Below, piece after piece: positions 1,250 to 39,810 of a stretch of DNA of 64,000 nt. Made by a program: the position numbers and the translations under genes. Position 1 is the first letter of the stretch, and each line of letters opens with the position of its first letter. Source of the stretch: Alphaproteobacteria bacterium (GTDB taxonomy: Bacteria; Pseudomonadota; Alphaproteobacteria; UBA9219; RGZA01); NCBI GenBank assembly GCA_028278105.1, contig JANQEX010000043.1:1055-65054 (forward strand), written 5' to 3'. Below the pieces are notes generated by a model that ran no database searches, was not told the origin of the DNA, and saw only the letters and a list, made by a program, of their open reading frames with translations.

Positions 1250-1831
1250 TTAACCACGCAGGCTGAAAACAAAGAAAGGCGCGGCCTGATCGGTGCAGGT
1301 GATCGACGTGTTGATGTCCGACGAATTGGCGATCAGGTTCAACACTTCCGCCGTTCCGCTGTTGACGACCAGCAAGCCCGATCCGCGAGCCACGTTGGCG
1401 CTGCGGGTCAGGAAATTGCGGCAGGCGTCGGCCTTCATGCTGTTGAAGGTCACGCGGAAAGACGCGATGCCGTAAGTGGAGGTCGTGTCGTTGACATCCA
1501 CGCCACCGCCCCATTGGTGGCGAAGGATCTTGGCGCTGCCGGTATCCACCACCATGTCGGCGGGAAGCACGCCAAGATTGTACAATTCGCTAACGTCCTC
1601 CGTGATGGTGTCGCTGGGGTTCTGGGCGTAAAAGCCGCGAATCCCCTGCACCAGGGCCAGCAACTGCTTGGCGGCATTCTGCTGGCGCATATTCTCATAG
1701 GCAGACCCGGCGGCGGCCCAGATGCCGCCCACGATCAATCCTACGATGCCCAGCACGATGGCGGCTTCGATCAGGTTGAACCCTGCCTTGCGCGCGATGC
1801 TGCGTATGGAAATTTTTTGAACATTCATCAT
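1250..1831 (-). CDS. Type IVb major pilin (PilS-like prepilin with long leader)
   Basis: MMNVQKISIRSIARKAG|FNLIEAAIVLGIVGLIVGG, a type IVb prepilin with cleavage motif G-F-x-L-I-E. GGAGGA lies upstream of the ATG at 1831. The ORF track's longer version (to 1987) is an upstream extension. Confidence 0.7.
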   Translation of the reverse strand: MMNVQKISIRSIARKAGFNLIEAAIVLGIVGLIVGGIWAAAGSAYENMRQQNAAKQLLALVQGIRGFYAQNPSDTITEDVSELYNLGVLPADMVVDTGSAKILRHQWGGGVDVNDTTSTYGIASFRVTFNSMKADACRNFLTRSANVARGSGLLVVNSGTAEVLNLIANSSDINTSITCTDQAAPFFVFSLRG

Positions 1832-1970
1832 GACCCATCCTCCGGGATACGGTTTGGCTTCAGACACCAAGGGAAGAATGCGAATCACCATAGAACAAAA
1901 CAGCCCTCCCTTACAGGCTTTTTTATTCACCAGCCTGTGGCGAATCGGAACGAAACCGGCCCCGAATCCG

Positions 1971-3068
1971 TCACCAGCCCCCACCACCCGTGTTCTGCAT
2001 TTCGGTAAGAATGGTGGTGATATTCAAAATCGTCAGCATCGCCCAGGCAATCACGCCGCCCACGCAGAGTAACCCGCCCGTGCGGACGGCTTGCGACTGG
2101 GTATTCAGAACCTCGATCTGCTCTTCAATCCATTCCTTGGTCACGGCGTCGATCACCTGACCCACATCCGACCGCTCGGACAGGATTTCCAGGTCCAGCG
2201 CCACGGTCGGGTCCGGGAAATAGTAGTTGCCGGCGCGCAGGGCCTCGCCAAGATTGCGGCCGCGCAAGATCTCCTCGCGCGCCGAACGCAGCCGTTCCGC
2301 AAGCCAGGGCGTGGCTTCTTCCTCAAGGATTTCCACGGCCCGTTTCAAGGGCACTTGCGCGCGAAGCAGCGCGGACAGGCCCAGCAGGAAGGCCGAGCCC
2401 TGCCAGATGCGGTACCAGGCCCAGGGTGGATAACGGTCGAACCGCACGCGCAGCCGCCCCCGCCAGTAGGGCAGCGTTCCGGCAACCAAAAAGATCACGC
2501 CGGCCACCACGACCACCAGGATCCAGCCCTGCTGGCTGACAAAATCCGACACGCTCGCGATTCCGCCCATGGCTTCCATCACCTTGGGCGGCGCGTTCTT
2601 GCGCATGTTCTCGACCAGATAAACGCCGAACAGATAGAAAACGCCCGACAGCAGCCCCAGCATGAACAGCGGATAGGCCACCGCCATGACGATGGCCGAG
2701 CGCATGCGCTGGGCGCTGTCGCCCACATGCATGATGGCGGACAGGGCGTTCGCCACCTGGCCGGATTCCTCGCCCGCGCGGATCATGTAGAGATCGGCCG
2801 AAGGCACCCAGCCGTTCATCGCCTCGCTGAGCGTTTCGCCCGCGCGGTCCTTTTGCAGCCATTCGCGCAGGGCCAGCGCCTGCGGCCTTTGCGGCGCGCG
2901 CCCCATGTCGGACGCGTTGTACCACAAGCGCTCCAGGGCCCGCGACAGCGCCTCGTTCTGCGCCAGCATGCCCTGAAGCTTGCGGTAAATCCGAAAGCGC
3001 ATCTTGCGGTCATTGCGCATGACAAACCGGGCGTATTTGCGGCGGTAATTTTCCATCAGAGCACCCAT
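1971..3068 (-). CDS. Type IV pilus inner-membrane platform protein (GspF/PilC/TcpE family; R64 PilR-like)
   Basis: 365 aa with three hydrophobic blocks and GspF-like repeats. Position between the ATPase and the pilin is typical. An alternative start at 3056 would abut the ATPase stop. Confidence 0.7.
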   Translation of the reverse strand: MGALMENYRRKYARFVMRNDRKMRFRIYRKLQGMLAQNEALSRALERLWYNASDMGRAPQRPQALALREWLQKDRAGETLSEAMNGWVPSADLYMIRAGEESGQVANALSAIMHVGDSAQRMRSAIVMAVAYPLFMLGLLSGVFYLFGVYLVENMRKNAPPKVMEAMGGIASVSDFVSQQGWILVVVVAGVIFLVAGTLPYWRGRLRVRFDRYPPWAWYRIWQGSAFLLGLSALLRAQVPLKRAVEILEEEATPWLAERLRSAREEILRGRNLGEALRAGNYYFPDPTVALDLEILSERSDVGQVIDAVTKEWIEEQIEVLNTQSQAVRTGGLLCVGGVIAWAMLTILNITTILTEMQNTGGGGW

Positions 3069-10093: not shown

Positions 10094-10564
10094 TTAACGG
10101 CTTTTGGGTGCGGGACCGGAAGAAGCCTTTGTGGATGCTTGTTTTTCCGGGGTGTTGCGCGCGGATGCAAGGCTTGCGCCGGGCTTTCTGGCGCCGGCGG
10201 CGGGGTTGGCGCTGGCGCCTTCTTCCTCCTCGCCTTCTTCGAGGGGTTTATCGACGAATTTGAGCGGCCAGGGCTCCCAGGCGTAATCGACCATGCGGTG
10301 GCGGTCGCTATGCTTGATATTGGGCCTTTTCCGGGTCACGAACCACACGCGCAGCGCGCGCAATGCCGCGTCGAAGCTCATGCCGCGCTGCTCCAGGATG
10401 ACGAAGATCATGGTGGTGATCGCCGCCATGACCAGCGTGTACCAGCGTAAATGCAACAGTGTAAAAACAAATGGCACCGCCGCGCGCGCGTCCATGAAAA
10501 AGAATCGCGCCGGCTTCATGCTGTTGCGCCAATGCGTATCGCCGCCATAAACCGGTTGGGTCAT
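10094..10564 (-). CDS. IcmT/TraK-family T4BSS protein with low-complexity C-terminal tail
   Basis: GDTHWRNSMKPARFFFMDARAAVPFVFTLLHLRWYTLVMAAITTMIFVILEQRG recalled from memory as the IcmT/TraK motif. Position after dotB mirrors R64 traJ-traK. Confidence 0.5.
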   Translation of the reverse strand: MTQPVYGGDTHWRNSMKPARFFFMDARAAVPFVFTLLHLRWYTLVMAAITTMIFVILEQRGMSFDAALRALRVWFVTRKRPNIKHSDRHRMVDYAWEPWPLKFVDKPLEEGEEEEGASANPAAGARKPGASLASARNTPEKQASTKASSGPAPKSR

Positions 10565-10650
10565 GGGGGCCAGTTTCCTAAAGAATGGTTAAAAAAGCTT
10601 TATTGCATCATGCCGAATTGAAACAAACCGCGCTGCGTCCCTGAAAATCA

Positions 10651-10737
10651 TTCTTTCTCGCCCTCCTCGCCGAAGCCGCGGGAGAGCATCAGGTAATGGC
10701 GGCGGTCGATCTGGTTTTCGGAACAGGCGGCGTTGGC
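10651..10737. repeat. Direct repeat copy A: duplicated 3' end of dotB including its stop codon
   Basis: 87 bp, about 94% identical to 11438..11525. Its minus-strand translation ANAACSENQIDRRHYLMLSRGFGEEGEKE* equals the DotB C-terminus. Confidence 0.8.
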
Positions 10738-10738
10738 T

Positions 10739-11101
10739 TCACTTTTTCTTCAAGCCAGAAGCTATGGCCAACTCCGCGCGGCACGCTTGCTCAAGAAGCG
10801 GCAAATCGTCCCGGACAAGCTTCCAGAGTATGTCGGGGGCGAGGCGTTCATAGTCGTGCCGCAACACATTGCCGATCCCGGCGACCTTGTGCCACGGGAT
10901 CGCGGGATGGCGCGCCTTGATGCTGTCTGGAATGTGCCGGCTGGCTTCAGAAATAATTTCCATGCCGCGCTCGACAAGCCAGCGCTTCTGCCAGTCGCTT
11001 TCGAAGGCTTCGATGCTCACGCCGTCCATGACGGCGCGAACATGCCCGGCGGCCTCAACCATGTCGTTCAGCCGCAAAGAGACGTTACGCGGCTTCATCA
11101 A
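10739..11101 (-). CDS. hepT: HepT-family (DUF86) toxin of a HepT/MntA toxin-antitoxin pair
   Basis: 120 aa. Overlaps the upstream mntA-like gene by 4 nt. Confidence 0.75.
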   Translation of the reverse strand: MMKPRNVSLRLNDMVEAAGHVRAVMDGVSIEAFESDWQKRWLVERGMEIISEASRHIPDSIKARHPAIPWHKVAGIGNVLRHDYERLAPDILWKLVRDDLPLLEQACRAELAIASGLKKK

Positions 11102-11391
11102 AAAACCCGCACGGCCGAATCCTCAATGTCCCGCTTCAGCAAAGGATGAAGGCTGGCGCGGGTCATGATGTCGGTTTTCCCGCCAAGAATGGCGGCCGTT
11201 TTTTCCTTCACGTCCATCAGTTCATACAGGCCGAGCTTTCCTTTTTCATGATCAAAAAAAAGATCAATGTCCGAATCCGCGCCCGCCGCGTCGCGCGAGG
11301 CGGATCCGAACAGGTAAAGCTTCATCACGCCCAGCTTTTTAAGCTCGGCTTCATGGTCCTGAAGCAGATGAATAATGTCTTTACGCTTCAT
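11098..11391 (-). CDS. mntA: MntA-family minimal nucleotidyltransferase antitoxin
   Basis: 97 aa with LFGSASRDAAGADSDIDL (GSxxRG...DxD nucleotidyltransferase motif). Confidence 0.75.
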   Translation of the reverse strand: MKRKDIIHLLQDHEAELKKLGVMKLYLFGSASRDAAGADSDIDLFFDHEKGKLGLYELMDVKEKTAAILGGKTDIMTRASLHPLLKRDIEDSAVRVF

Positions 11392-11434
11392 GACGGCACA
11401 TTACCACGGTTTGCAAAATATTTCCAGAAACGGG

Positions 11435-12616
11435 TTATTCCTTTTCGCCTTCCTCGCCGAAGCCACGGGAGAGCATCAGGTAATGGCGGCGGTCGATCTG
11501 GTTTTCGGAATAGGCGGCGTTGGCCGCTTTCTGCATGGTCTTGCCGTATTTTTCCAGAAGGTTCTGCGTCTCCGAACTCCAGCTTTCCAGGGGCGTGGCC
11601 AGAAGATGCTCGCGGATATGCTCGTCGAAAATCAGGAATTCGCGCAAGGCGATGCGTCCCCCGCCCACGCGCGGCAGAAGCGCCTGCGTCACGATAAGGC
11701 GCGTCGTTTCGATCAGCGCCACGGCGCGCTCCAGCCGCTCCCCCGTGTCGAAGGTGCTGACCAGGCGGCGCACGGTGGCCGCCACGCCGATGGTGTGCGT
11801 GGTGGAATAGACAAGATGGCCGGTCTGTCCGGCCTCAATCGCCGCCGAAACCGTCTCGCGGTCGCGCGCCTCGCCCACCAGGATCACGTTCGGCTTGCGG
11901 CGCAGCGCGTTGCGCACCCCGGCGGCGAAATTCGGCAGATTGCGCGGGATTTCCGACTGGGCGATCACGCTGTGCGGCCCCAGGATCTGGTCATACACAT
12001 ATTCAATCGGCGCTTCGTAGGTCAGCATCTTGCCGGCCCCTTGCGGCCGCTCGATCAGCATGCGCGTGCCGGCGGCCAGCAAGGTGGTTTTGCCCGAACC
12101 CGTGGGCCCGGTCACGAACACCAGCCCCTGGCGCGGCGCCCAGGCCTCGATCAGTTCCGGCTCGATGCCAAGATCGGTCATGCGCGGCGGCAGGTTGGGC
12201 AGCACGCGCATGCTGATGCACACGCCGTCGCGCCCCTTGCTCATGATGGCGGTGATGTTGACGCGAAAGCGGAAACGGGTGTTGCGGTCCACCCGGATTT
12301 CGTAGGACAGGTCCAGGTCCTTGCCCGCCGTCAGGGCCGCCATGGCGTCCAGCCCGTACATTTTGGTGACGAAGGCGGCGATATCGGCCGAGTCAATCGA
12401 GCGGCGCGTGACCGCGAACAGCTTGCCGTCCACCTCGATATAGGTTTGCCGGTCGGACTGGATGGTGATGTCGCTGGCGCGCTGCAGCACACACCACAGG
12501 ATCAGGTCGTCGACAACTTCGATGCGGATACGCGGCGGCTCATCCGGCCACATGTCCATTTCAACGGCGCCGCCCTGGGTGCCCTGGCCGGACGCTAGCG
12601 CGGAGCCGTGATCCAT
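11435..12616 (-). CDS. dotB: DotB/TraJ-like T4BSS ATPase (PilT/VirB11 superfamily)
   Basis: Walker A GPTGSGKTT, Asp box, His box TTHT. Order dotD-dotC-dotB as in Legionella and R64 traHIJ. The start may be an internal Met (~12559) because 12616 overlaps dotC by 22 nt. Confidence 0.7.
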   Translation of the reverse strand: MDHGSALASGQGTQGGAVEMDMWPDEPPRIRIEVVDDLILWCVLQRASDITIQSDRQTYIEVDGKLFAVTRRSIDSADIAAFVTKMYGLDAMAALTAGKDLDLSYEIRVDRNTRFRFRVNITAIMSKGRDGVCISMRVLPNLPPRMTDLGIEPELIEAWAPRQGLVFVTGPTGSGKTTLLAAGTRMLIERPQGAGKMLTYEAPIEYVYDQILGPHSVIAQSEIPRNLPNFAAGVRNALRRKPNVILVGEARDRETVSAAIEAGQTGHLVYSTTHTIGVAATVRRLVSTFDTGERLERAVALIETTRLIVTQALLPRVGGGRIALREFLIFDEHIREHLLATPLESWSSETQNLLEKYGKTMQKAANAAYSENQIDRRHYLMLSRGFGEEGEKE

Positions 12617-13497
12617 TGCTCGCTCTTCGGATTCAGGAGGGCGGGCGCGGTGATGTTGAGCCCGCGGTTGCCGACGCGCATTTCGGCGCCGCCGCCGGTG
12701 ATGCCGCGGTCTTCCTGCGCGGCATAGGGCGGGGTCATCATGCCTTGCGCCAGCAACTCGCGGTAACGGATCATGCCCTTGTAGTCGGTGTTCAGCTTGT
12801 CAAGATTGGCCTCGAAGATTTCGTCGGCCTGCTGCACGCCTTCCTCCCAGCCCACGGCGACCCATTTGCGCCATTCGGCCAGCTCTTTCTGGTTCTTGGG
12901 CTGCAAAAGCCTGGGCGGCGGGTCGACAAGGCCCCAGTCGCGTTCCAGATAGCTGCGCCAGTCGCGCGGGGCCGTGACAATGCGCGCGGCGCGGTTGATG
13001 CGGTAAACGCGGTCGGCCACGGCGGCGTTCTGCCCGCCCACCGCCACGATCACGGCGCGCTGCGCCTCGCTGACCACCGGCGGCTCCACCAGCAGGCCCG
13101 ACGGCGCCGCGATCAGCAAAAACCCGAAATTATAGACGCGGCTCAGGCTGCCTTCACTCTCGGCCAGGCGGCGCTGGATCTGAAAGGTGCGGAATGCAAG
13201 GCCGGCGCGCGCGCCATAGGAAAGCGCCGCTTCCTTCATGGCGTCGCTGCGGATGCGGCCGCCGATATTCTGCTTTTCTTTTTCCTTCAGTTCTTCCTCA
13301 TCCTCCTGCACCCGCAGCATGGATTGCACCTGGGCCATGCTGGGCGGCGGCGGCGACGGCGGCGGCGTCTGGCGGCCGGTATCGGCGTCGATAAAATCGG
13401 CGGCATGCGCCGGCGTCCCCGCCAGAAGCAGGAACGCCGCCAGCGCAATAAACAAAATGGTTCGTTTAGTAACGCAGAACGCCATCGGTCGGAGCAA
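12595..13497 (-). CDS. dotC: DotC/TraI-like T4BSS outer-membrane-associated protein
   Basis: 300 aa with signal peptide. Size and position between dotD and dotB. Confidence 0.5.
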   Translation of the reverse strand: MLRPMAFCVTKRTILFIALAAFLLLAGTPAHAADFIDADTGRQTPPPSPPPPSMAQVQSMLRVQEDEEELKEKEKQNIGGRIRSDAMKEAALSYGARAGLAFRTFQIQRRLAESEGSLSRVYNFGFLLIAAPSGLLVEPPVVSEAQRAVIVAVGGQNAAVADRVYRINRAARIVTAPRDWRSYLERDWGLVDPPPRLLQPKNQKELAEWRKWVAVGWEEGVQQADEIFEANLDKLNTDYKGMIRYRELLAQGMMTPPYAAQEDRGITGGGAEMRVGNRGLNITAPALLNPKSEQWITAPR

Positions 13498-13993
13498 ATC
13501 GCAGGTGAATGGCCTGGTTGCCGAGATCGACGATCACGTCGGCCCGGCGCCCGGCCTGAAAGCCGATATCACGCAACACCGCCGCAATCGGCTGCTGGTA
13601 GGCGTTGACGCCGACCACCAGCGGAACCGGAGGCGGATTGCTGATGATCTTGAAGGTATAGCCGCCCATTTCGGCCAGGGTGCGCGTGATCTGCTCAATC
13701 GGCCCGGTCCAGGTCATCGTGACGGGCTGCTGCAACGCCGGGTCTTCGATATCCGCCCCGGCATCGTTGGGCATGGGGGTGCGGAAAGCCTCGATCCTGG
13801 AGAGCCGGACAAGCGCTTCGCTTGCTTCCTCGGCGGCATGGGCCAGACGCAGCGCGGCCGGATCAGGGTCGACCGCCGAGGCCTGCACAGGCATGAGGGA
13901 GGAGTGCGCAGCCATGGGATCATCGGCGCAGGCGGCCAAAAGCCCCATCAACAGACAGGTTCCGGCGAGACGAAGCGTCTTTCTGACAGGCAT
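13466..13993 (-). CDS. dotD: DotD/TraH-like T4BSS lipoprotein
   Basis: Lipobox LLAAC after a signal peptide. 175 aa. First gene of the dotDCB triplet. Confidence 0.55.
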   Translation of the reverse strand: MPVRKTLRLAGTCLLMGLLAACADDPMAAHSSLMPVQASAVDPDPAALRLAHAAEEASEALVRLSRIEAFRTPMPNDAGADIEDPALQQPVTMTWTGPIEQITRTLAEMGGYTFKIISNPPPVPLVVGVNAYQQPIAAVLRDIGFQAGRRADVIVDLGNQAIHLRFAPTDGVLRY

Positions 13994-15435: not shown

Positions 15436-15620
15436 GAACCGAGTCGCACAGAACCCCGTCACCCCCGCGAAGGCGGGGGTCCACGTTTTAAAACTTTTTA
15501 TTTTTGATAAAGGATCTGTAGCGTGGATGCCCGCCTTCGCGGGGGTGACGGTTCTTCTTGTAGAATGTGCCGGCCCAAAGAGCCCTTGGCATAACAGCAG
15601 TTTCCGCATGAAATTTCCCG
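15424..15620. mobile_element. MITE-like element copy 1 (28-bp near-perfect terminal inverted repeats GTCACCCCCGCGAAGGCGGGGGTCCACG)
   Basis: Arms at ~15458..15485 and ~15524..15551. Conserved flanks aaaaatctcatgaa... and ...ttcttgtagaatgtgcc...gcatgaaatttcc shared with the copy at 17170. Confidence 0.6.
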
Positions 15621-17169: not shown

Positions 17170-17350
17170 ATACCAAAAATCTTATGAAATGACTCACGGC
17201 TTGCACGAACTGTCACCCCCGCGACGGCGGGGGTCCACGCTTTAAAACTTTTGTTTCGATGGTTTTCCAGCGTGGCTGCCCGCCTCCGCGGGCATGACCT
17301 TTTTTCTTGTGGCATAGGTCCGTTCATAAGGCCGTTGGCATGATTTCCAG
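17170..17350. mobile_element. MITE-like element copy 2
   Basis: ataccaaaaatcttatgaaatgactcac...gtcacccccgcgacggcgggggtccacgc...gcgtggctgcccgcctccgcgggcatgac...ttcttgtggcat... Confidence 0.6.
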
Positions 17351-17379: not shown

Positions 17380-17415
17380 AAGAAAAAGTTAAGGGCGGCT
17401 GGAGCCGCCCTTTTT
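17380..17415. terminator. Bidirectional rho-independent terminator
   Basis: gggcggctggagccgccc stem with TTTTT on the plus side and AACTTTTTC on the minus side. Confidence 0.5.
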
Positions 17416-17423
17416 AAAACACA

Positions 17424-17499
17424 GGGGACACAATAAAATGCGCAAGGACAGAGGCGCCCCAAAAGCAGCACACCCGCCGGCGCATTTTATTGTGTCCCC
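17424..17499. repeat. Perfect 20-bp inverted repeat with 36-bp spacer
   Basis: ggggacacaataaaatgcgc (17424..17443) and gcgcattttattgtgtcccc (17480..17499). Confidence 0.7.
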
Positions 17500-17509
17500 G
17501 TCGCTTCTA

Positions 17510-17550
17510 TTGCCCCCAAAAATTAGGGCGGCTTCCGCCGCCCTTGAACC
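17510..17550 (-). terminator. Rho-independent terminator after the 580-aa gene
   Basis: gggcggcttccgccgccc hairpin. The minus-strand reading is followed by TAATTTTTGG. Confidence 0.45.
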
Positions 17551-17572
17551 ACGCGCCCATGGCAGAAACGCG

Positions 17573-19315
17573 CTACCGCCCCGGCGCGGAAACAAGAATG
17601 GCCTTGACCTGCGGCATATAAGAAGGCTCCTCGACCTCCGGGGCCGAGGCACGGACCACGGCCGGGCGGCCATTGTCATCGTCAACAAACCCGTCGCCCG
17701 GCACCGCCACGGCGGGGATAATGCCGCCCTTCATGCCGACGCCCGCCATGGCGAACATCTGCGCGAGCGAAGCGGATCTTTCGAAGGATTCCGGCGCGGC
17801 CCAGCCACGGCCCGAAGCCGGGCTCTCCCCCGGCCTGCCGCTATCGGCGTACATTGTTGTCCCGTCGCCGTAGAATTCATGGATGACTTCCGCAATGATC
17901 CTGTCCTGTTCGGCATGCCATTCATGAAGCTTGCCGCGCACGGCAAGGCGCAATTTCTTGAATTCAGGCGATTCAAGCATGGCGATGAATTTGGGGTCTT
18001 CAAAGCGCCAGAGCCGGGCCATATTCACGCCAGCACTCAACCCTGCCCCTAAGGCTATACTTCCCCCCCCGGCAATCGAATTAAGTATATCAAGGTTCTT
18101 TTGAGCATAGGAAGCTGCCGCATTGTTTTTTGCGAAAGCCTGCCCTTTTCCTGACTCCGGCGCGTTTGAATTGTCGGCATATCTATTCATGGCCGCAGTG
18201 GCCTCGGCCAACTCGCGGTTGGAACGGCATTTTTCCTTGCTTGCCTTGTATCCAACGCTTTTACGCATATCCTCCGCATGCTGGTGTGACTTGTCGCATT
18301 GTGGCAAGGAGAAATCATCTATTAGAGCATCAACTATGTTATTAATGACTCCTGCGCAATAGGTCCTGTGCATAAGTCTTGCATAATTTTCAGTTTTACC
18401 CATGGGAGTTTTCGCGCGGTCATCCCAATTTAAAGACCCCGTGGGGGGGCACCGCCCCGCAGCCGCAGCCAAGACCGCGCTCAATTTCTTTCCGCCTTTT
18501 AGCGGAATATTCTTTCCCTTCGCAAGGCTGGGATTAATACCCCAAAGCTTCACGCTGTCTTCCCCATCACCGCCACTGCCGCTATCACCGCCTTCCAGCT
18601 TGGCTATGTCAAGCGCCTCTCCGGCATCCTCAACAAGCTTTGCCCATGCTATTGCAGTGCCATCCGCGCTTTCTTTGTGTGAATTTAATTCCTCGAAAAT
18701 TCTAGTTAAAGATTTGTGTACAGCTGCGGGGATATTCATGTTCTGCTGCGCGGCTTTCGTCATGGTGCGCGCGCGGGATTCCGCCGGGTGGTCCGTCTTG
18801 CCGCCGCCGGTTGCAACCAGAATGAGCCCCGCGGGCGATATCAGCCCATGCGTCTCGATATTGGCAAAACCACCACCGCCATCGTTGTAAGGCAGCTTGT
18901 AGGTCTTGGCCAATTCATAACTGCGCGTGCGCATCAACTCGTGACGTTCGTTGTCCTGGGCGTATTCCAGCCGCTCGCCCTTCATCTGGGCATCGGCCAT
19001 GATCTGGGAATTGGTTGAAGCGTGCCCGCGGGGTTGGTCATCTGTATTCGTGTTCAATCTCGAAACGGTAGAATCCGTATTTTCTGAAATGGTGTTCAGA
19101 AGCTTTATCATCTCTGCCTGCGATGGCAGCGTGGCTGGAGGTCCTGCCAACGGGCGACCTTTATATTTACCATGGGGATCACCGTTTCTCTCTGTATACC
19201 CTCCATGGCTCCCGGCGCGGCTTGCCAGCAACGTTTCAGGCAGGGCAAGTCCGGCAACAAGAACGATTACAACGGAAACGCGCACGTAAATACGAAGAAG
19301 GGCGGATTTTTTCAT
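17573..19315 (-). CDS. Hypothetical N-terminally membrane-anchored protein (580 aa), large secreted or periplasmic region
   Basis: MKKSALLRIYVRVSVVIVLVAGLALPETLLA signal anchor with GGGAGG RBS. A low-GC stretch lies inside (~18050..18420). No recognisable family. Confidence 0.4.
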   Translation of the reverse strand: MKKSALLRIYVRVSVVIVLVAGLALPETLLASRAGSHGGYTERNGDPHGKYKGRPLAGPPATLPSQAEMIKLLNTISENTDSTVSRLNTNTDDQPRGHASTNSQIMADAQMKGERLEYAQDNERHELMRTRSYELAKTYKLPYNDGGGGFANIETHGLISPAGLILVATGGGKTDHPAESRARTMTKAAQQNMNIPAAVHKSLTRIFEELNSHKESADGTAIAWAKLVEDAGEALDIAKLEGGDSGSGGDGEDSVKLWGINPSLAKGKNIPLKGGKKLSAVLAAAAGRCPPTGSLNWDDRAKTPMGKTENYARLMHRTYCAGVINNIVDALIDDFSLPQCDKSHQHAEDMRKSVGYKASKEKCRSNRELAEATAAMNRYADNSNAPESGKGQAFAKNNAAASYAQKNLDILNSIAGGGSIALGAGLSAGVNMARLWRFEDPKFIAMLESPEFKKLRLAVRGKLHEWHAEQDRIIAEVIHEFYGDGTTMYADSGRPGESPASGRGWAAPESFERSASLAQMFAMAGVGMKGGIIPAVAVPGDGFVDDDNGRPAVVRASAPEVEEPSYMPQVKAILVSAPGR

Positions 19316-19326
19316 GGCTGGCCTCC

Positions 19327-20298
19327 CTATCTCTGCCAGGGCATGCCGGTTGCTTCCGGCGAAACTGTTACCGAGACCGGCCATGCGATGATCGGAGCCA
19401 TACCATCCGGCCCGGACACGTTCTTATATTGAGGCGGCTTGATCCATTTATTCGATGAAGCGCTGCCGCCGCCGCATTTGAACCAGAATTCCTGCGTCTC
19501 GCATTCCTCGCCTTCGCGTTGTTGAACCTTTTTCACCTTGCTTTTGTTTTGCCCGCCCTTGTTGGGACGTGTTTTGACTGATTTCGGCCCATCCAATTGT
19601 TGCTCGTCGCGCGTTTGCGCCAGCTTCTTCATGCCCTTGGTGACTTTTTTGGCCGATTCATCACCACGGCAGTTTGCGCCATGGACCGCGCCCTTGCAGG
19701 TCCTGTCCATGTGGTTGTCTCCGTCAGAAAAACCACCCAACGCCTTCATCAATGCCCCCATCGCTCCCTGCACAGGAATATATAATTGCCTGTCGGGTTT
19801 TACGGGTCCGGCATCCGGGCGGAAAACCACCTTTTCAAAAACCGCTTTGGCACGCGGCGCATCGGTCTTCGTCCTGACCACGCAAGCCATGACCTGGCCA
19901 TCGCCAAGGCTGGCTTCAACATAAGCGGGCGCGCTGTTTCTGTTGCCGTTGAACAGGCCCTTGAATGTCGTCAGAATTTTTTCAAGTCCGGAATCATAAT
20001 CCGCAACCATGATTTCCTGGTTGCCATTGGCCGGGCTTTTTCTTGACGATCCGTCCACCCCGGTAATTTCTTTTTCCGTGCCACCATCCGCGTCCTTCCT
20101 TGAGGGATAGGCCGCGAACATTTTCGCGGCAAAATTCACCTCTTTCTTATAGGCTTCCTTAAATGCGCTATTGATGGCTTGGGACTCCTCACTATCTATG
20201 CCGGGGCCCCCAGCAAAAAGCGGGGGAGGAGTAAAGGCGGCGATGCAAAAAAAAGCGGCAAAAAGGGCCAGGAAGGCGAAAGACGGTTCCTTCTTCAT
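19327..20298 (-). CDS. Hypothetical secreted protein with Lys-rich C-terminal region
   Basis: MKKEPSFAFLALFAAFFCIAAFTPPPLFA signal peptide. The whole gene sits in a low-GC segment. Confidence 0.4.
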   Translation of the reverse strand: MKKEPSFAFLALFAAFFCIAAFTPPPLFAGGPGIDSEESQAINSAFKEAYKKEVNFAAKMFAAYPSRKDADGGTEKEITGVDGSSRKSPANGNQEIMVADYDSGLEKILTTFKGLFNGNRNSAPAYVEASLGDGQVMACVVRTKTDAPRAKAVFEKVVFRPDAGPVKPDRQLYIPVQGAMGALMKALGGFSDGDNHMDRTCKGAVHGANCRGDESAKKVTKGMKKLAQTRDEQQLDGPKSVKTRPNKGGQNKSKVKKVQQREGEECETQEFWFKCGGGSASSNKWIKPPQYKNVSGPDGMAPIIAWPVSVTVSPEATGMPWQR

Positions 20299-20499
20299 GA
20301 AAACCCCCTGCAATTTTAATAAATCTCGATGAATTTGCTACCAAACCGTTAACAACCGCTTAATTTACTTGCAAGGATTCAAGGCTTTCTGGCGGGGGTT
20401 ATCCACGGGAAAAAATGGGTGAAAGCAGTGACAAGGAAAAAAACCGGTAAACCCGGCTTTCACCTTCCCGCCTTCTGATTTCCGGCCTCTGACTTCTGA

Positions 20500-22011
20500 T
20501 TACTGAACCGGGAAGTCCTGCCGGATGGGAGGCAGCATGGCGCCGGGGGAGGCATGGGCGGGAGCGGGGCCGGAAGGCGGCGCGGCATCCTTTGCTTCGG
20601 ATTCCGGACCGGATTCGGTCAGCCGCGCCGCGACGCTTTCCGCCCGCATGTTGGGCTGATGCTTCCGCTTCCTCGCCCGCGCTTCCAGCGCGCGGGGCAG
20701 TTTCTCCGACGCCGCTTCCAGCGCGCGCGTCAGCCTGCGGATTTCCTCCATCAACTCGCGCGTGGTGTTTTCGGAAATTTCTCCCTCTCCCACCGGCCTG
20801 TCGCCGCGGCGCGGCACAATATCATAATCATCTTCCTTCGCGGCCAGCGCAGCGGCATGCAAAATCTTGTTGTGCTCCGCGATGCGCGCGTCAATGCGCT
20901 CCTCAAGCTCCAAACCAAAAAGCTCCAGCTCCGGGGGCGTTCTTTCGCCTTTCGTGCCCAATTGGGCCCTGCGGTCACGAATATTCATCCCGACATTGCG
21001 CTGCCAGCGGCTGAGGCAATAGCCCTTGGGCGGCCGCTCCATGCCATGCCCGTGCGTGAATACGTTCAAAAGCTCCTCGTAAGACCCGGCGTTGTTTTTT
21101 CCACAGTCTTTCAAAATCTTGTCCGAGGGACACATGTGCCAGCTAAGCGCGATGAGGATCGGGTTGATTTTGGCTAGCATGCCCGTCATGGCGCTTAGAA
21201 TACCCGTGTCGTCCCTGATGCCGCCGGCCGTATCCAGCTTTCTTCCGGCGGGGCGGGGCTCATGCAACTCCATCCTCAGGCGTATGTGCAAAAGCGCCAC
21301 CATCATCTTGCGCATGTGCGGGTCGGAAATCTTGTATTCGTCCTTGGTAAGAAAATTGTGCAGTTCGACCTTGATTTTTTCGGGATCATACGGGAGGCAC
21401 CAGGTATCCAGAATCGCGCGCGTGAGCGATACATCGGCGCCTTCAACATCGTTCCATGGCTGGTTTGGATTTGTCTTTATCTCAACATCACAGCCGTCGC
21501 GCTTGCCCATGGCGCCCAGATTGCACAGGGCCTTTCGTATTTTCCGCGCGCCAATCGCGGTTCCCGAATCGGGGGATGAAAACAGCCCGACGGCGAAGAA
21601 GTGCGCCACCTGATTCCGGAACTTCTTTTCCAAGGCGTCGCGCGCCACATCGTCCCGGCCCCAGGTTGCGAGCGCGCAGGCGTAATTCGATCCCGGCCCA
21701 AGTTTGGCGCGAAGCGCCGCCGCCGCAGCCTTGCGTTCCGCCTCGTCGATGGCGTCAATGGTGGCGCTTGTGCTTCTTTCCATCATCCCGGCAAGGGTTT
21801 TCATTCCGCTGACCGTGGCGGCCGTGTTCGAATTGATGCCCTGAAACAACTGGTTTACGGCGCCGATCAGGCTGCCGAAGATGCTGTTCAACGTTCCCAG
21901 CAACGCGCCCACGGCATTGTCGGCCCGCGCCGGCGCCGGCATGGCGCAGGCCAGAAACACGCCCAGAACCACCGCCGCCACGCTTCCCGGACCATTCGTG
22001 CGAAACATCAT
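20500..22011 (-). CDS. Hypothetical secreted protein (503 aa)
   Basis: Signal peptide MMFRTNGPGSVAAVVLGVFLACAMPAPARA. Several conserved-looking Cys residues. No family recognised. Confidence 0.4.
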   Translation of the reverse strand: MMFRTNGPGSVAAVVLGVFLACAMPAPARADNAVGALLGTLNSIFGSLIGAVNQLFQGINSNTAATVSGMKTLAGMMERSTSATIDAIDEAERKAAAAALRAKLGPGSNYACALATWGRDDVARDALEKKFRNQVAHFFAVGLFSSPDSGTAIGARKIRKALCNLGAMGKRDGCDVEIKTNPNQPWNDVEGADVSLTRAILDTWCLPYDPEKIKVELHNFLTKDEYKISDPHMRKMMVALLHIRLRMELHEPRPAGRKLDTAGGIRDDTGILSAMTGMLAKINPILIALSWHMCPSDKILKDCGKNNAGSYEELLNVFTHGHGMERPPKGYCLSRWQRNVGMNIRDRRAQLGTKGERTPPELELFGLELEERIDARIAEHNKILHAAALAAKEDDYDIVPRRGDRPVGEGEISENTTRELMEEIRRLTRALEAASEKLPRALEARARKRKHQPNMRAESVAARLTESGPESEAKDAAPPSGPAPAHASPGAMLPPIRQDFPVQ

Positions 22012-30243: not shown

Positions 30244-30480
30244 AACAGTCTCATGAAGTGACTCATCCCGAAAGCACGGACCGTCACCCCCGCGAAGGCG
30301 GGGGTCCACGCTTATAATCTTCTGATTTATTTGGATTTAAGCGTGGATGCCCGCCTCCCTGCTTCGCCTTCGGCTACGCAGGGCGCACTTGCAAAAAGGC
30401 CCGGCGTAGCTTTAGCGAAGACGGGTCGCGGGCATGACGACTCTCCCTATGGGATAGATCAGTTTACAAGACCGTTAGTA
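30244..30480. mobile_element. MITE-like element copy 3 (same TIR, with a ~70-bp insertion inside the right arm)
   Basis: acaaacagtctcatgaagtgactcat...gtcacccccgcgaaggcgggggtccacgc ... gcgtggatgcccgcctcc[insert]gcgggcatgacg. Confidence 0.55.
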
Positions 30481-30592
30481 TAATTGTGTACACAAATCGT
30501 GCCCTCTGTATTATCATGATCTTTAGTAGGGATGAAAGAAAAATAGCGCGGGGATGCCCGCCATGTCATTACGGCCTGGAAAGTAGGAGAAC

Positions 30593-30895
30593 ATGGCAAA
30601 AGAAGATACAAGGCGTTATTCAAGAAGCGCGCTCGCAAGGATGAAGGCGCGGGGTGACCTGCGGGCCACGCCGTCCGACGCGCCGGAGATTGAGCTTGAC
30701 GAAGCTTTCTGGGAAAGGGCCCGCATTGTTGAAACGCGCCCGCGCCGCAAGGAATCGGTGCATCTGCGGCTTGACGCCGAAACGCTGGATTTCTACCGCG
30801 CCGCCGGCCAGGGTCATCTGACGCGCATGGCCAATATCCTGAAAGCCTATGCGGAGAGTCATGACAAACGCCGGCCGCGCGATGGCAACGCCTGA
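30593..30895 (+). CDS. BrnA-like (RHH/CopG, DUF4415-type) antitoxin, orphan
   Basis: 100 aa, ...VHLRLDAETLDFYRAAGQGHLTRMANILKAYAES. No BrnT-like toxin ORF is adjacent. Opposite orientation to the surrounding T4BSS genes. Confidence 0.55.
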   Translation: MAKEDTRRYSRSALARMKARGDLRATPSDAPEIELDEAFWERARIVETRPRRKESVHLRLDAETLDFYRAAGQGHLTRMANILKAYAESHDKRRPRDGNA

Positions 30896-39502: not shown

Positions 39503-39805
39503 CGAACCTTCGAACCTAATTAAATATCGTTACCGAGTGATTAACTTCGAAAGGTTCGAAGGACCGGAGGGACGAGGGTTCGAAGGAAAAACAAGGCCTG
39601 ATTTCGAAGAAGAATCTTCTTCGTCCCTTCGAACCTCCGAACCTTCGAACCTAATTAATATCGCTACCGAGTGATTAACTTCGAGAGGTTCGCAGGTGCG
39701 GAGGGACGAAGGTTCGAAGAAAAAACGAGGCGGAGCCACGAGAAACAAGGCCTGATTTCGAAGAAGAATCTTCTTCGTCCCTTCGAACCTCCGAACCTGC
39801 GAACC
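39503..39805. repeat. Two tandem copies of a ~136/167-bp unit with internal palindromes
   Basis: Each unit: cgaaccttcgaacctaattaa(a)tatcg(t/c)taccgagtgattaacttcga...ggagggacga(g/a)ggttcgaag...aaggcctgatttcgaagaagaatcttcttcgtcccttcgaacctccgaacct. Unit 2 carries a 15-bp insertion. Confidence 0.75.
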
Positions 39806-39810
39806 TTGTT

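Follow-up and report, generated by a model that had tools for sequence, protein, structure and literature searches.

Organization of the dotB–icmT junction

The stretch of DNA analysed here (64,000 nt, further referred to as the window) belongs to contig JANQEX010000043.1 of an alphaproteobacterial assembly (GCA_028278105.1) and carries a gene cluster for a Dot/Icm-like type IVB secretion system (T4BSS), inside which a toxin–antitoxin cassette, mntA-hepT, occupies the junction between dotB and icmT and is bracketed by two copies of the dotB 3′ end. All members of the row dotD-dotC-dotB-mntA-hepT-icmT are encoded on the minus strand, and the junction comprises the following features (aa, amino acids).

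11435..12616, minus strand: dotB, 393 aa, intact gene for a Dot/Icm-type secretion ATPase (Pfam T2SSE, 125 bits; dotD-dotC-dotB synteny)
11435..11524, minus strand: repeat copy A, serving as the functional dotB 3′ end (ANAAYSENQIDRRHYLMLSRGFGEEGEKE, stop codon TAA)
11392..11434, minus strand: 43-nt cassette leader with a promoter-like signal (comparison of mntA upstream regions)
11098..11391, minus strand: mntA-like gene for a minimal nucleotidyltransferase, 97 aa, putative antitoxin (PF01909, NTP_transf_2, 49.8 bits)
10739..11098, minus strand: hepT-like gene for a HEPN RNase, 119 aa, putative toxin (PF01934, 76.4 bits)
10565-10738, minus strand: non-coding stretch between hepT and icmT (gene order)
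10648..10737, minus strand: repeat copy B, a former dotB 3′ end now orphaned (29 codons and a TGA stop), beginning 1 base past the hepT stop codon
10565..10647, minus strand: native 83-nt dotB–icmT spacer, kept upstream of icmT (its length falls within the 71-205 nt gap range of relatives)
10094..10564, minus strand: icmT/traK-family gene, 156 aa (NF038220 IcmT_TraK, 84.3 bits, cut-off 40)

The gene calls made in a first-pass annotation of this DNA hold for the toxin–antitoxin pair and for both its neighbours, and the pair indeed exactly fills the interval between the two copies, since these 697 nt (10738-11434) consist of one spacer base, hepT, mntA and the 43-nt leader. The locus thus presents a clean, datable scar, with a toxin–antitoxin cassette set inside an essential secretion-system operon and both neighbours left unbroken.

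The duplicated 3′ end of dotB

The claim that a duplicated dotB 3′ end flanks the cassette is borne out by alignment of the copies. A repeat search returned a direct repeat of 88 nt (10650-10737 versus 11437-11524; 94% identity, 5 mismatches, spacing 787), which is the longest direct repeat within the 64-kb window; its 41-nt core occurs there exactly twice, against 0 occurrences expected from 100 shuffles. With both stop codons included the unit reaches 90 nt (11435-11524 versus 10648-10737) and has 6 differences, all of them transitions. The repeat had been described as 87 bp long, at 11438..11525 and 10651..10737, with 5 mismatches; its coordinates deviate by 1-3 nt from those given above, and 6 mismatches result once the TAA/TGA stop is counted. 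The edges of similarity are sharp, one lying 1 base past the hepT stop codon and the other at the dotB stop codon. The sequences that follow the two copies, the 43-nt leader in the case of A and the native 83-nt spacer in that of B, are not similar (p~0.7), so the duplication ends at the stop codon without extension beyond it.

Both copies translate to ANAA[Y/C]SENQIDRRHYLMLSRGFGEEGEKE followed by a stop, so that the duplicate still reads as the dotB tail apart from a single replacement of Tyr (copy A) by Cys (copy B). Among the six differences, four are synonymous, one is the TAA/TGA switch and one is this Tyr-to-Cys change; at the silent positions copy B reads CGC, GAG, GAG, AAA and TGA. The altered Tyr is invariant in all nine relatives compared, which identifies the substitution as decay of copy B after its orphaning. 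Copy B has to be considered an untranslatable orphan because it lacks a usable start codon and is preceded, 15 nt upstream, by an in-frame stop. The tail SENQIDRRHYLMLSRGFGEEGEKE (SENQ..YLML..EEGEKE), present in both copies, is lacking in all 30 of the nearest DotB proteins, and at the nucleotide level copies A and B are far nearer to each other than to any relative. The orphan therefore must come from the same lineage or from a close sibling and not from a distant element.

Several classes of insertion were considered and rejected. A transposon or insertion sequence would carry a transposase gene and terminal inverted repeats and leave a short duplication of fixed length (~2-15 bp); it is rejected on account of the 88-90 bp length of the duplication, the lack of inverted repeats at the cassette ends and the presence of only two open reading frames (ORFs). 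In agreement with the first-pass annotation, the length of the repeat greatly exceeds that of a transposase-type target-site duplication. An integrase-mediated island is rejected as well, the 697-nt interval encoding MntA and HepT only and no tyrosine or serine recombinase. Neither can the insert be an integron gene cassette, as the element that follows hepT is the copy of the dotB tail, with no inverted repeat or attC-like structure (fold z=+0.45, RNA parameters). The same fold score and the lack of an Rfam match at E up to 1 led to rejection of a structured-RNA role for copy B; the native spacer behind it gave neither an Rfam match nor a significant RNA fold.

The mntA–hepT cassette and its probable promoter

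Both genes of the pair are intact and translationally coupled, the mntA stop and the hepT ATG sharing one base (TGATG), and their PF01909 and PF01934 scores exceed the gathering scores. MntA possesses the active-site motif GS-x10-DxD (GSASRDAAGADSDIDL; FGSASRDAAGADSDIDLFF) and aligns to the MNT protein of PDB 1wot (E 2e-5). Scores against the curated models, 34.7 bits for NF047752 MntA_antitoxin and 31.4 bits for NF047751 HepT_toxin, stay under the equivalog cut-off of 60, and PADLOC matched MntA to the candidate system PDC-S09 only and HepT to nothing, so that no defence-system assignment was made. Judged by these profiles the pair represents a related subfamily and not the curated HepT/MntA equivalog. 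In alignments of a profile of 30 subfamily members to the HepT structures 5yep and 7ae6, GIGNVLRHDY of the window HepT corresponds to GLRNIAVHDY of 5yep. Residues 76-83 accordingly read GNVLRHDY in place of canonical RNxxxHxY, the Arg of Rx4H being replaced by Gly and another Arg standing beside the His, and the HEPN motif Rx4-6H is absent from its canonical register. G76, N77, R80, H81 and Y83 are invariant across the 30 subfamily members, and Y83 aligns with the Tyr that is AMPylated in SO_3166, a modification by which MntA neutralises the RNase toxin in type VII systems.

The closest known system is type VII MntA/HepT, exemplified by SO_3165/SO_3166 of Shewanella oneidensis (PDB 5yep, 6m6u) and by the HEPN/MNT pair of Aphanizomenon (PDB 7ae6). 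The window pair shares with it a nucleotidyltransferase gene located upstream of a ~120-aa HEPN (DUF86/HepT-like) gene, the stop/start overlap, matches above both Pfam thresholds, GS-x10-DxD and H-x-Y including the Tyr. It departs from that system in falling below the equivalog cut-offs and in having Gly for the canonical Arg (GNVLRHDY versus RNIAVHDY). The pair belongs to the broad HEPN/MNT (type VII-like) kind, with a non-canonical motif, and does not constitute a new system, while its function as toxin and antitoxin, like any contribution to keeping the cluster stable, is to be taken as presumptive.

Comparison of mntA upstream regions assigned a putative regulatory element to the 43-nt leader. 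It contains TGGAAA (11421-11426) separated by a 17-nt spacer from the hexamer of TGG-TAATGT, an extended -10 element (11398-11406), which ends 6 nt before the mntA ATG. The pattern TGnTAnnn[T/A]-N6-ATG recurs in seven mntA-hepT loci (the window, L022, L023, L024, L026, L031 and L039/L040), and the hexamer TGGAAA is common to the window and L022. Conservation of this motif implies a probable extended -10 promoter producing a leaderless or near-leaderless transcript, so that the 43-nt leader essentially would be the promoter of the cassette itself. A generic promoter scan called no promoter at the cassette. Given its own promoter-like signal, the cassette need not depend on the T4BSS transcript; read-through or co-transcription with the T4BSS operon is possible and compatible with the orientation of the genes and with the absence of any predicted minus-strand terminator between dotB and icmT. 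The inserted unit extends from its own promoter to the hepT stop codon and measures ~700 bp.

Comparison with related loci

Related loci were collected by DotB scans, which gave 16 genome loci and 5 metagenome loci, and by two further look-ups that added L028-L030; all relatives are metagenome-assembled genomes. In every locus holding both genes (about 20: L001-L005, L007, L008, L010-L013, L017-L021, L028, L029) dotB is directly followed by icmT, and no homologue of hepT or mntA is found in any of these loci; L006 is truncated and ends after dotB. The gap between the two genes mostly is 71-205 nt long and reaches 409 nt in L001, over a span of DotB identity of 61-90%. The search of related loci that the first-pass annotation proposed as a check thus confirms its reading of the cassette as an insertion into the dotB–icmT junction. 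The nearest homologues of HepT, 70-74% identical, reside in unrelated chromosomal contexts with genes for a porin, a DEAD helicase, a LysR regulator or dnaG as neighbours, and the GC content over mntA is 0.50-0.52 (51.7%) versus 0.64-0.69 in dotB and 62% in the window. Because relatives lack hepT and mntA, the GC content is low and the HepT homologues occupy unrelated contexts, the cassette is an insertion acquired in this lineage. The converse scenario, in which cassette and repeat are ancestral and were lost in relatives by recombination between the repeats, might be suggested by the fact that 88-bp direct repeats would permit precise, scarless deletion, although it is hardly credible given that the cassette is missing from ~20 loci across the whole span of DotB identity, has a lower GC content and has its closest homologues in unrelated chromosomal contexts.

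The gap of L001, whose DotB is the closest to that of the window (90% identical), is occupied by an unrelated 90-aa ORF on the opposite strand (1802-2074, minus strand) without a Pfam family, so that the dotB–icmT junction has taken up cargo more than once.

Exact look-ups with the window DotB, with HepT in both its possible starts, with MntA and with the 100%-identical entry P0001 found no contig, and consequently neither a sibling genome nor an empty site came to hand. In the plasmid collection DNA relatives of the junction were limited to short dotB segments, no HepT homologue of more than 41% identity was found on sequenced plasmids, and viral contigs yielded no HepT relatives. As the window lies on one NCBI contig, its proteins are singletons in the database and the relatives, too, are metagenome assemblies, one may ask if the arrangement is an assembly artefact, in which dotB 3′ ends of two strain variants were put together around a cassette from elsewhere, the more so because a 45-nt identical core could tangle the assembly graph. 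We consider this very improbable: the junctions of the dotB stop with the leader and of the hepT stop with the orphan both need joining reads, and at least the latter must exist; all ORFs are intact, and the orphan continues into the native spacer and icmT. Similar architecture also is seen in two loci from different samples, L039 and L040, described below.

Possible routes to the duplicated end

The geometry of the locus is that of 3′-end displacement, as a replacement 3′ end, cargo and an orphan running into native downstream DNA all are found. Orphaned 3′ ends behind newly inserted modules in loci of type VI secretion (T6SS) and Rhs were put down to homology-facilitated illegitimate recombination (Kirchberger et al., 2017, PMC5361080), and the orphan fragments left after C-terminal or 3′-end displacement in Rhs, contact-dependent inhibition (CDI) and T6SS effector-immunity loci are ascribed to the same process there, with reference to Jackson et al. 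(2009). Recombination of this type was shown to occur, rarely, during conjugation (PMC3240628). The scar fits known outcomes of recombination and is a known kind of insertion scar. As in Rhs, CDI and T6SS loci, the conserved upstream gene serves as an anchor, new DNA brings a 3′ end together with cargo, and the old 3′ end becomes a non-expressed orphan; unlike in those loci, the replacement tail of dotB is nearly identical to the displaced one and confers no new dotB function, the cargo is a toxin–antitoxin and not an effector-immunity pair, and there is one orphan and no array. The window adds an example from outside toxin loci to the pattern of displaced orphan 3′ ends known from Rhs and T6SS.

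The route that we infer, and to which we would assign about an even chance, is that the cassette arrived in the dotB–icmT junction with an allele of dotB and that the old tail was pushed downstream. Incoming DNA would derive from an allele of a close sibling already carrying the cassette just after the dotB stop. It would recombine homologously within dotB, while its other end would be joined illegitimately, hepT stop to codon 365 of the resident dotB; such combination of one-sided homology with an illegitimate join constitutes homology-facilitated illegitimate recombination. The same product might alternatively result if a small circle that carries the 88-bp tail entered by a Campbell-type crossover. 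In either case, the resident last 29 codons and stop of dotB would be displaced downstream as the untranslated orphan (copy B), and copy A would complete dotB, which would stay intact, as would the native 173 nt upstream of icmT. The Cys found in copy B at an otherwise invariant Tyr is as expected for an orphan and speaks in favour of displacement. Of the six differences between the copies, five are silent or preserve the stop (p 0.015-0.018 for five or more under random transitions), and we lean toward two alleles that would have diverged while both were coding.

A number of points weigh against displacement by a sibling allele. The excess of silent changes (p~0.016) is significant only when every change is placed on the orphan copy, and by hand calculation it falls to p~0.12 if copy A is constrained and B drifts. 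Copy B is derived at two of the three polarisable differences (Tyr-to-Cys and GAA-to-GAG), which also fits decay in situ. Microhomology at the hepT/dotB join is weak (AAAG). The route also needs a donor in which the cassette starts at most ~8 nt from the dotB stop, so that one junction is left unexplained and only pushed back. Finally, no sibling allele or empty site of the same lineage is at hand, the nearest DotB being 90% and the nearest HepT 70-74% identical.

The same observations may be arranged into insertion in situ with a long target duplication, produced by copying or ligation into a staggered break or by replication template switching, the two copies being identical at the start and drifting later; in the template-switch version, replication would exit dotB, copy the toxin–antitoxin unit and return 90 nt behind the exit point. 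This is rather unlikely in our estimation, though a serious contender. The lineage-specific tail common to both copies, the location of both derived changes in copy B and the sharpness of both cassette ends are in line with it, as is the repeat that starts from inside the hepT stop codon in L039/L040 and hints at a recurrent process. Against it, five silent changes out of six would be improbable if changes fell mainly on a neutral orphan (p~0.016), the insert is devoid of a recombinase or transposase gene and of terminal inverted repeats, and eight other HepT loci have no flanking repeat. To our knowledge, no bacterial transposition or integration system gives duplications of 17-90 bp of variable length, which also counts against insertion in situ.

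Foreign DNA lying between direct repeats of a gene 3′ end is classically read as bounded by attL/attR, and islands located at gene 3′ ends carry a copy of the gene end restoring their target. Like the att duplications of integrative elements, the window has foreign DNA between direct repeats of the target 3′ end and an intact dotB; unlike such elements, its insert is only ~700 bp long and contains no integrase or other island genes. On the grounds of this repeat geometry one could imagine that a larger integrative element once had its attachment site at the dotB 3′ end and later was deleted down to the toxin–antitoxin pair. We find this far-fetched, because the 697-nt interval is taken up by two toxin–antitoxin genes and a promoter without integrase remnant, the end points of the deletion would need to match the promoter and the hepT stop codon, and no island occupies the dotB–icmT site in relatives.

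The first-pass annotation interpreted the locus as homologous capture of an addiction module from another element into a traJ-traK (dotB-icmT) junction. Insertion and a duplication that is not of transposase type stand. Capture from another element is not established, the lineage-specific tail in both copies meaning that any donor must have been a close sibling, and the traJ-traK and plasmid-addiction framing is loose in view of the housekeeping neighbours and of DotB scores of 389 bits for TIGR02524 DotB (under its cut-off of 463) versus 233 bits for plasmid TraJ. The window does resemble plasmid or integrative and conjugative element (ICE) addiction modules, acting by post-segregational killing, in that a co-directional toxin–antitoxin pair lies inside a type IV secretion cluster. 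It differs from them in that its cluster is flanked by chromosomal housekeeping genes with no relaxase or replication genes identified nearby and in that this HepT subfamily lacks close homologues on sequenced plasmids. Precise excision of the cassette through the 88-bp repeats is conceivable, and its loss would be opposed by post-segregational killing by the toxin–antitoxin pair.

Flanking repeats at other loci of the HepT subfamily

A second case of a repeat-flanked cassette is provided by the HepT homologue P0010 (69% identical), present in L039 and L040. The cassette there is flanked by the direct repeat GA[C/T]GGCGGAAATCGCAT of 17 nt (16/17 identical, p~0.005), whose upstream copy overlaps the start codon of the divergent dnaG gene and whose downstream copy begins inside the hepT stop codon; collinear similarity runs ~45 nt further with indels (p 0.0016). 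The corresponding feature is the following.

L039, 1966-2035 and 2862-2925: imperfect direct duplication of the dnaG start and its upstream region, also found in L040

No flanking repeats are present at the other subfamily loci (L022, L023, L024-L027, L031) or at four distant plasmid control loci. The downstream copy therefore begins 1 nt past the hepT stop in the window or inside it in L039/L040, i.e., in two of six independent subfamily loci. Duplication of a neighbour-gene end starting at the hepT stop in 2/6 loci is suggestive of a recurrent process, although the cases are too few to claim one. A bolder and improbable extension would be that the GNVLRHDY-type subfamily moves as a promoter-to-hepT-stop unit by an undescribed recombinase-free process, with variable target duplications of ~20-100 bp and landing at the ends of resident genes. 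If true, recurrence of the L039 type across the ~2,900 subfamily members would suggest an unrecognised route for the spread of toxin–antitoxin cassettes; at present, it is a lead that merits systematic survey.

In two other loci, a member of the same toxin–antitoxin subfamily directly adjoins an upstream gene of equal orientation at its 3′ end. In L031 (2208-2221), a LysR gene shares its last 14 nt with the mntA start, the C-terminal LysR codons being read from the cassette promoter region, and in L026 (1754-1757) the overlap with the mntA start involves a DEAD helicase gene.

Genomic setting of the secretion cluster

The cassette lies within a larger run of T4BSS genes, for which the following features complete the gene order.

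13466-13993, minus strand: dotD (Pfam DotD match)
12595-13497, minus strand: dotC (TraI(DotC) match)
past icmT, minus strand: TcpQ-like gene and secretin gene (gene order)

Homologues of a DotL-like type IV coupling protein (T4CP), DotM (DotM_C), DotH (DotH_IcmK), DotG-like (TrbI) and DotI (DotI_IcmL) also are encoded in the cluster, together with a type IVb pilus gene set. The order dotD-dotC-dotB-icmT with DotH, DotG, DotI, DotM and DotL homologues nearby is that of a Dot/Icm-type (type IVB, MPF-I) system. The window DotB is 84-90% identical to ~30 database DotB proteins, and the homologues of icmT downstream of dotB in L028 and L029 carry PF28014 IcmT_2. Housekeeping genes follow from ~39.4 kb on and over 40853-64000 of the window include those for formate–tetrahydrofolate ligase (FTHFS), cytochrome b/c1, an amidase, an exosortase, glycosyltransferases, panC and KpsF-like and LptA-like proteins. 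Because such genes flank it, the setting is a chromosomal contig of an uncultured alphaproteobacterium, and the cluster of a Dot/Icm-like T4BSS and a type IVb pilus is chromosomal and not obviously plasmid-borne.

Several minor observations concern the same cluster. Three copies of a repeat resembling repetitive extragenic palindromes or miniature inverted-repeat transposable elements (REP-/MITE-like; 15456-15596, 17203-17345 and 30274-30485) sit in its intergenic gaps; they are ~140-210 nt long, 80-88% identical where aligned, and contain the GC hairpin GTCACCCCCGCGAAGGCGGGGGTCCACG. The third copy is adjoined by a lone ORF of the BrnA antitoxin family (30593-30895, plus strand; PF14384, 45 bits), located on the opposite strand within the T4BSS cluster, with no intact BrnT toxin ORF seen upstream of it. 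The stretch 17400-20500, of low coding density, breaks the run of minus-strand T4BSS genes and may be further cargo; it holds plus-strand ORFs (17438-18052 and 19538-19924) with low third-position GC and without a Pfam match. Where the T4BSS cluster gives way to the housekeeping genes (39523-39806), two overlapping tandem-like repeat families are located, one of 75 nt at spacing 134 and the other of 67 nt at spacing 154, with identity of 89-97%.

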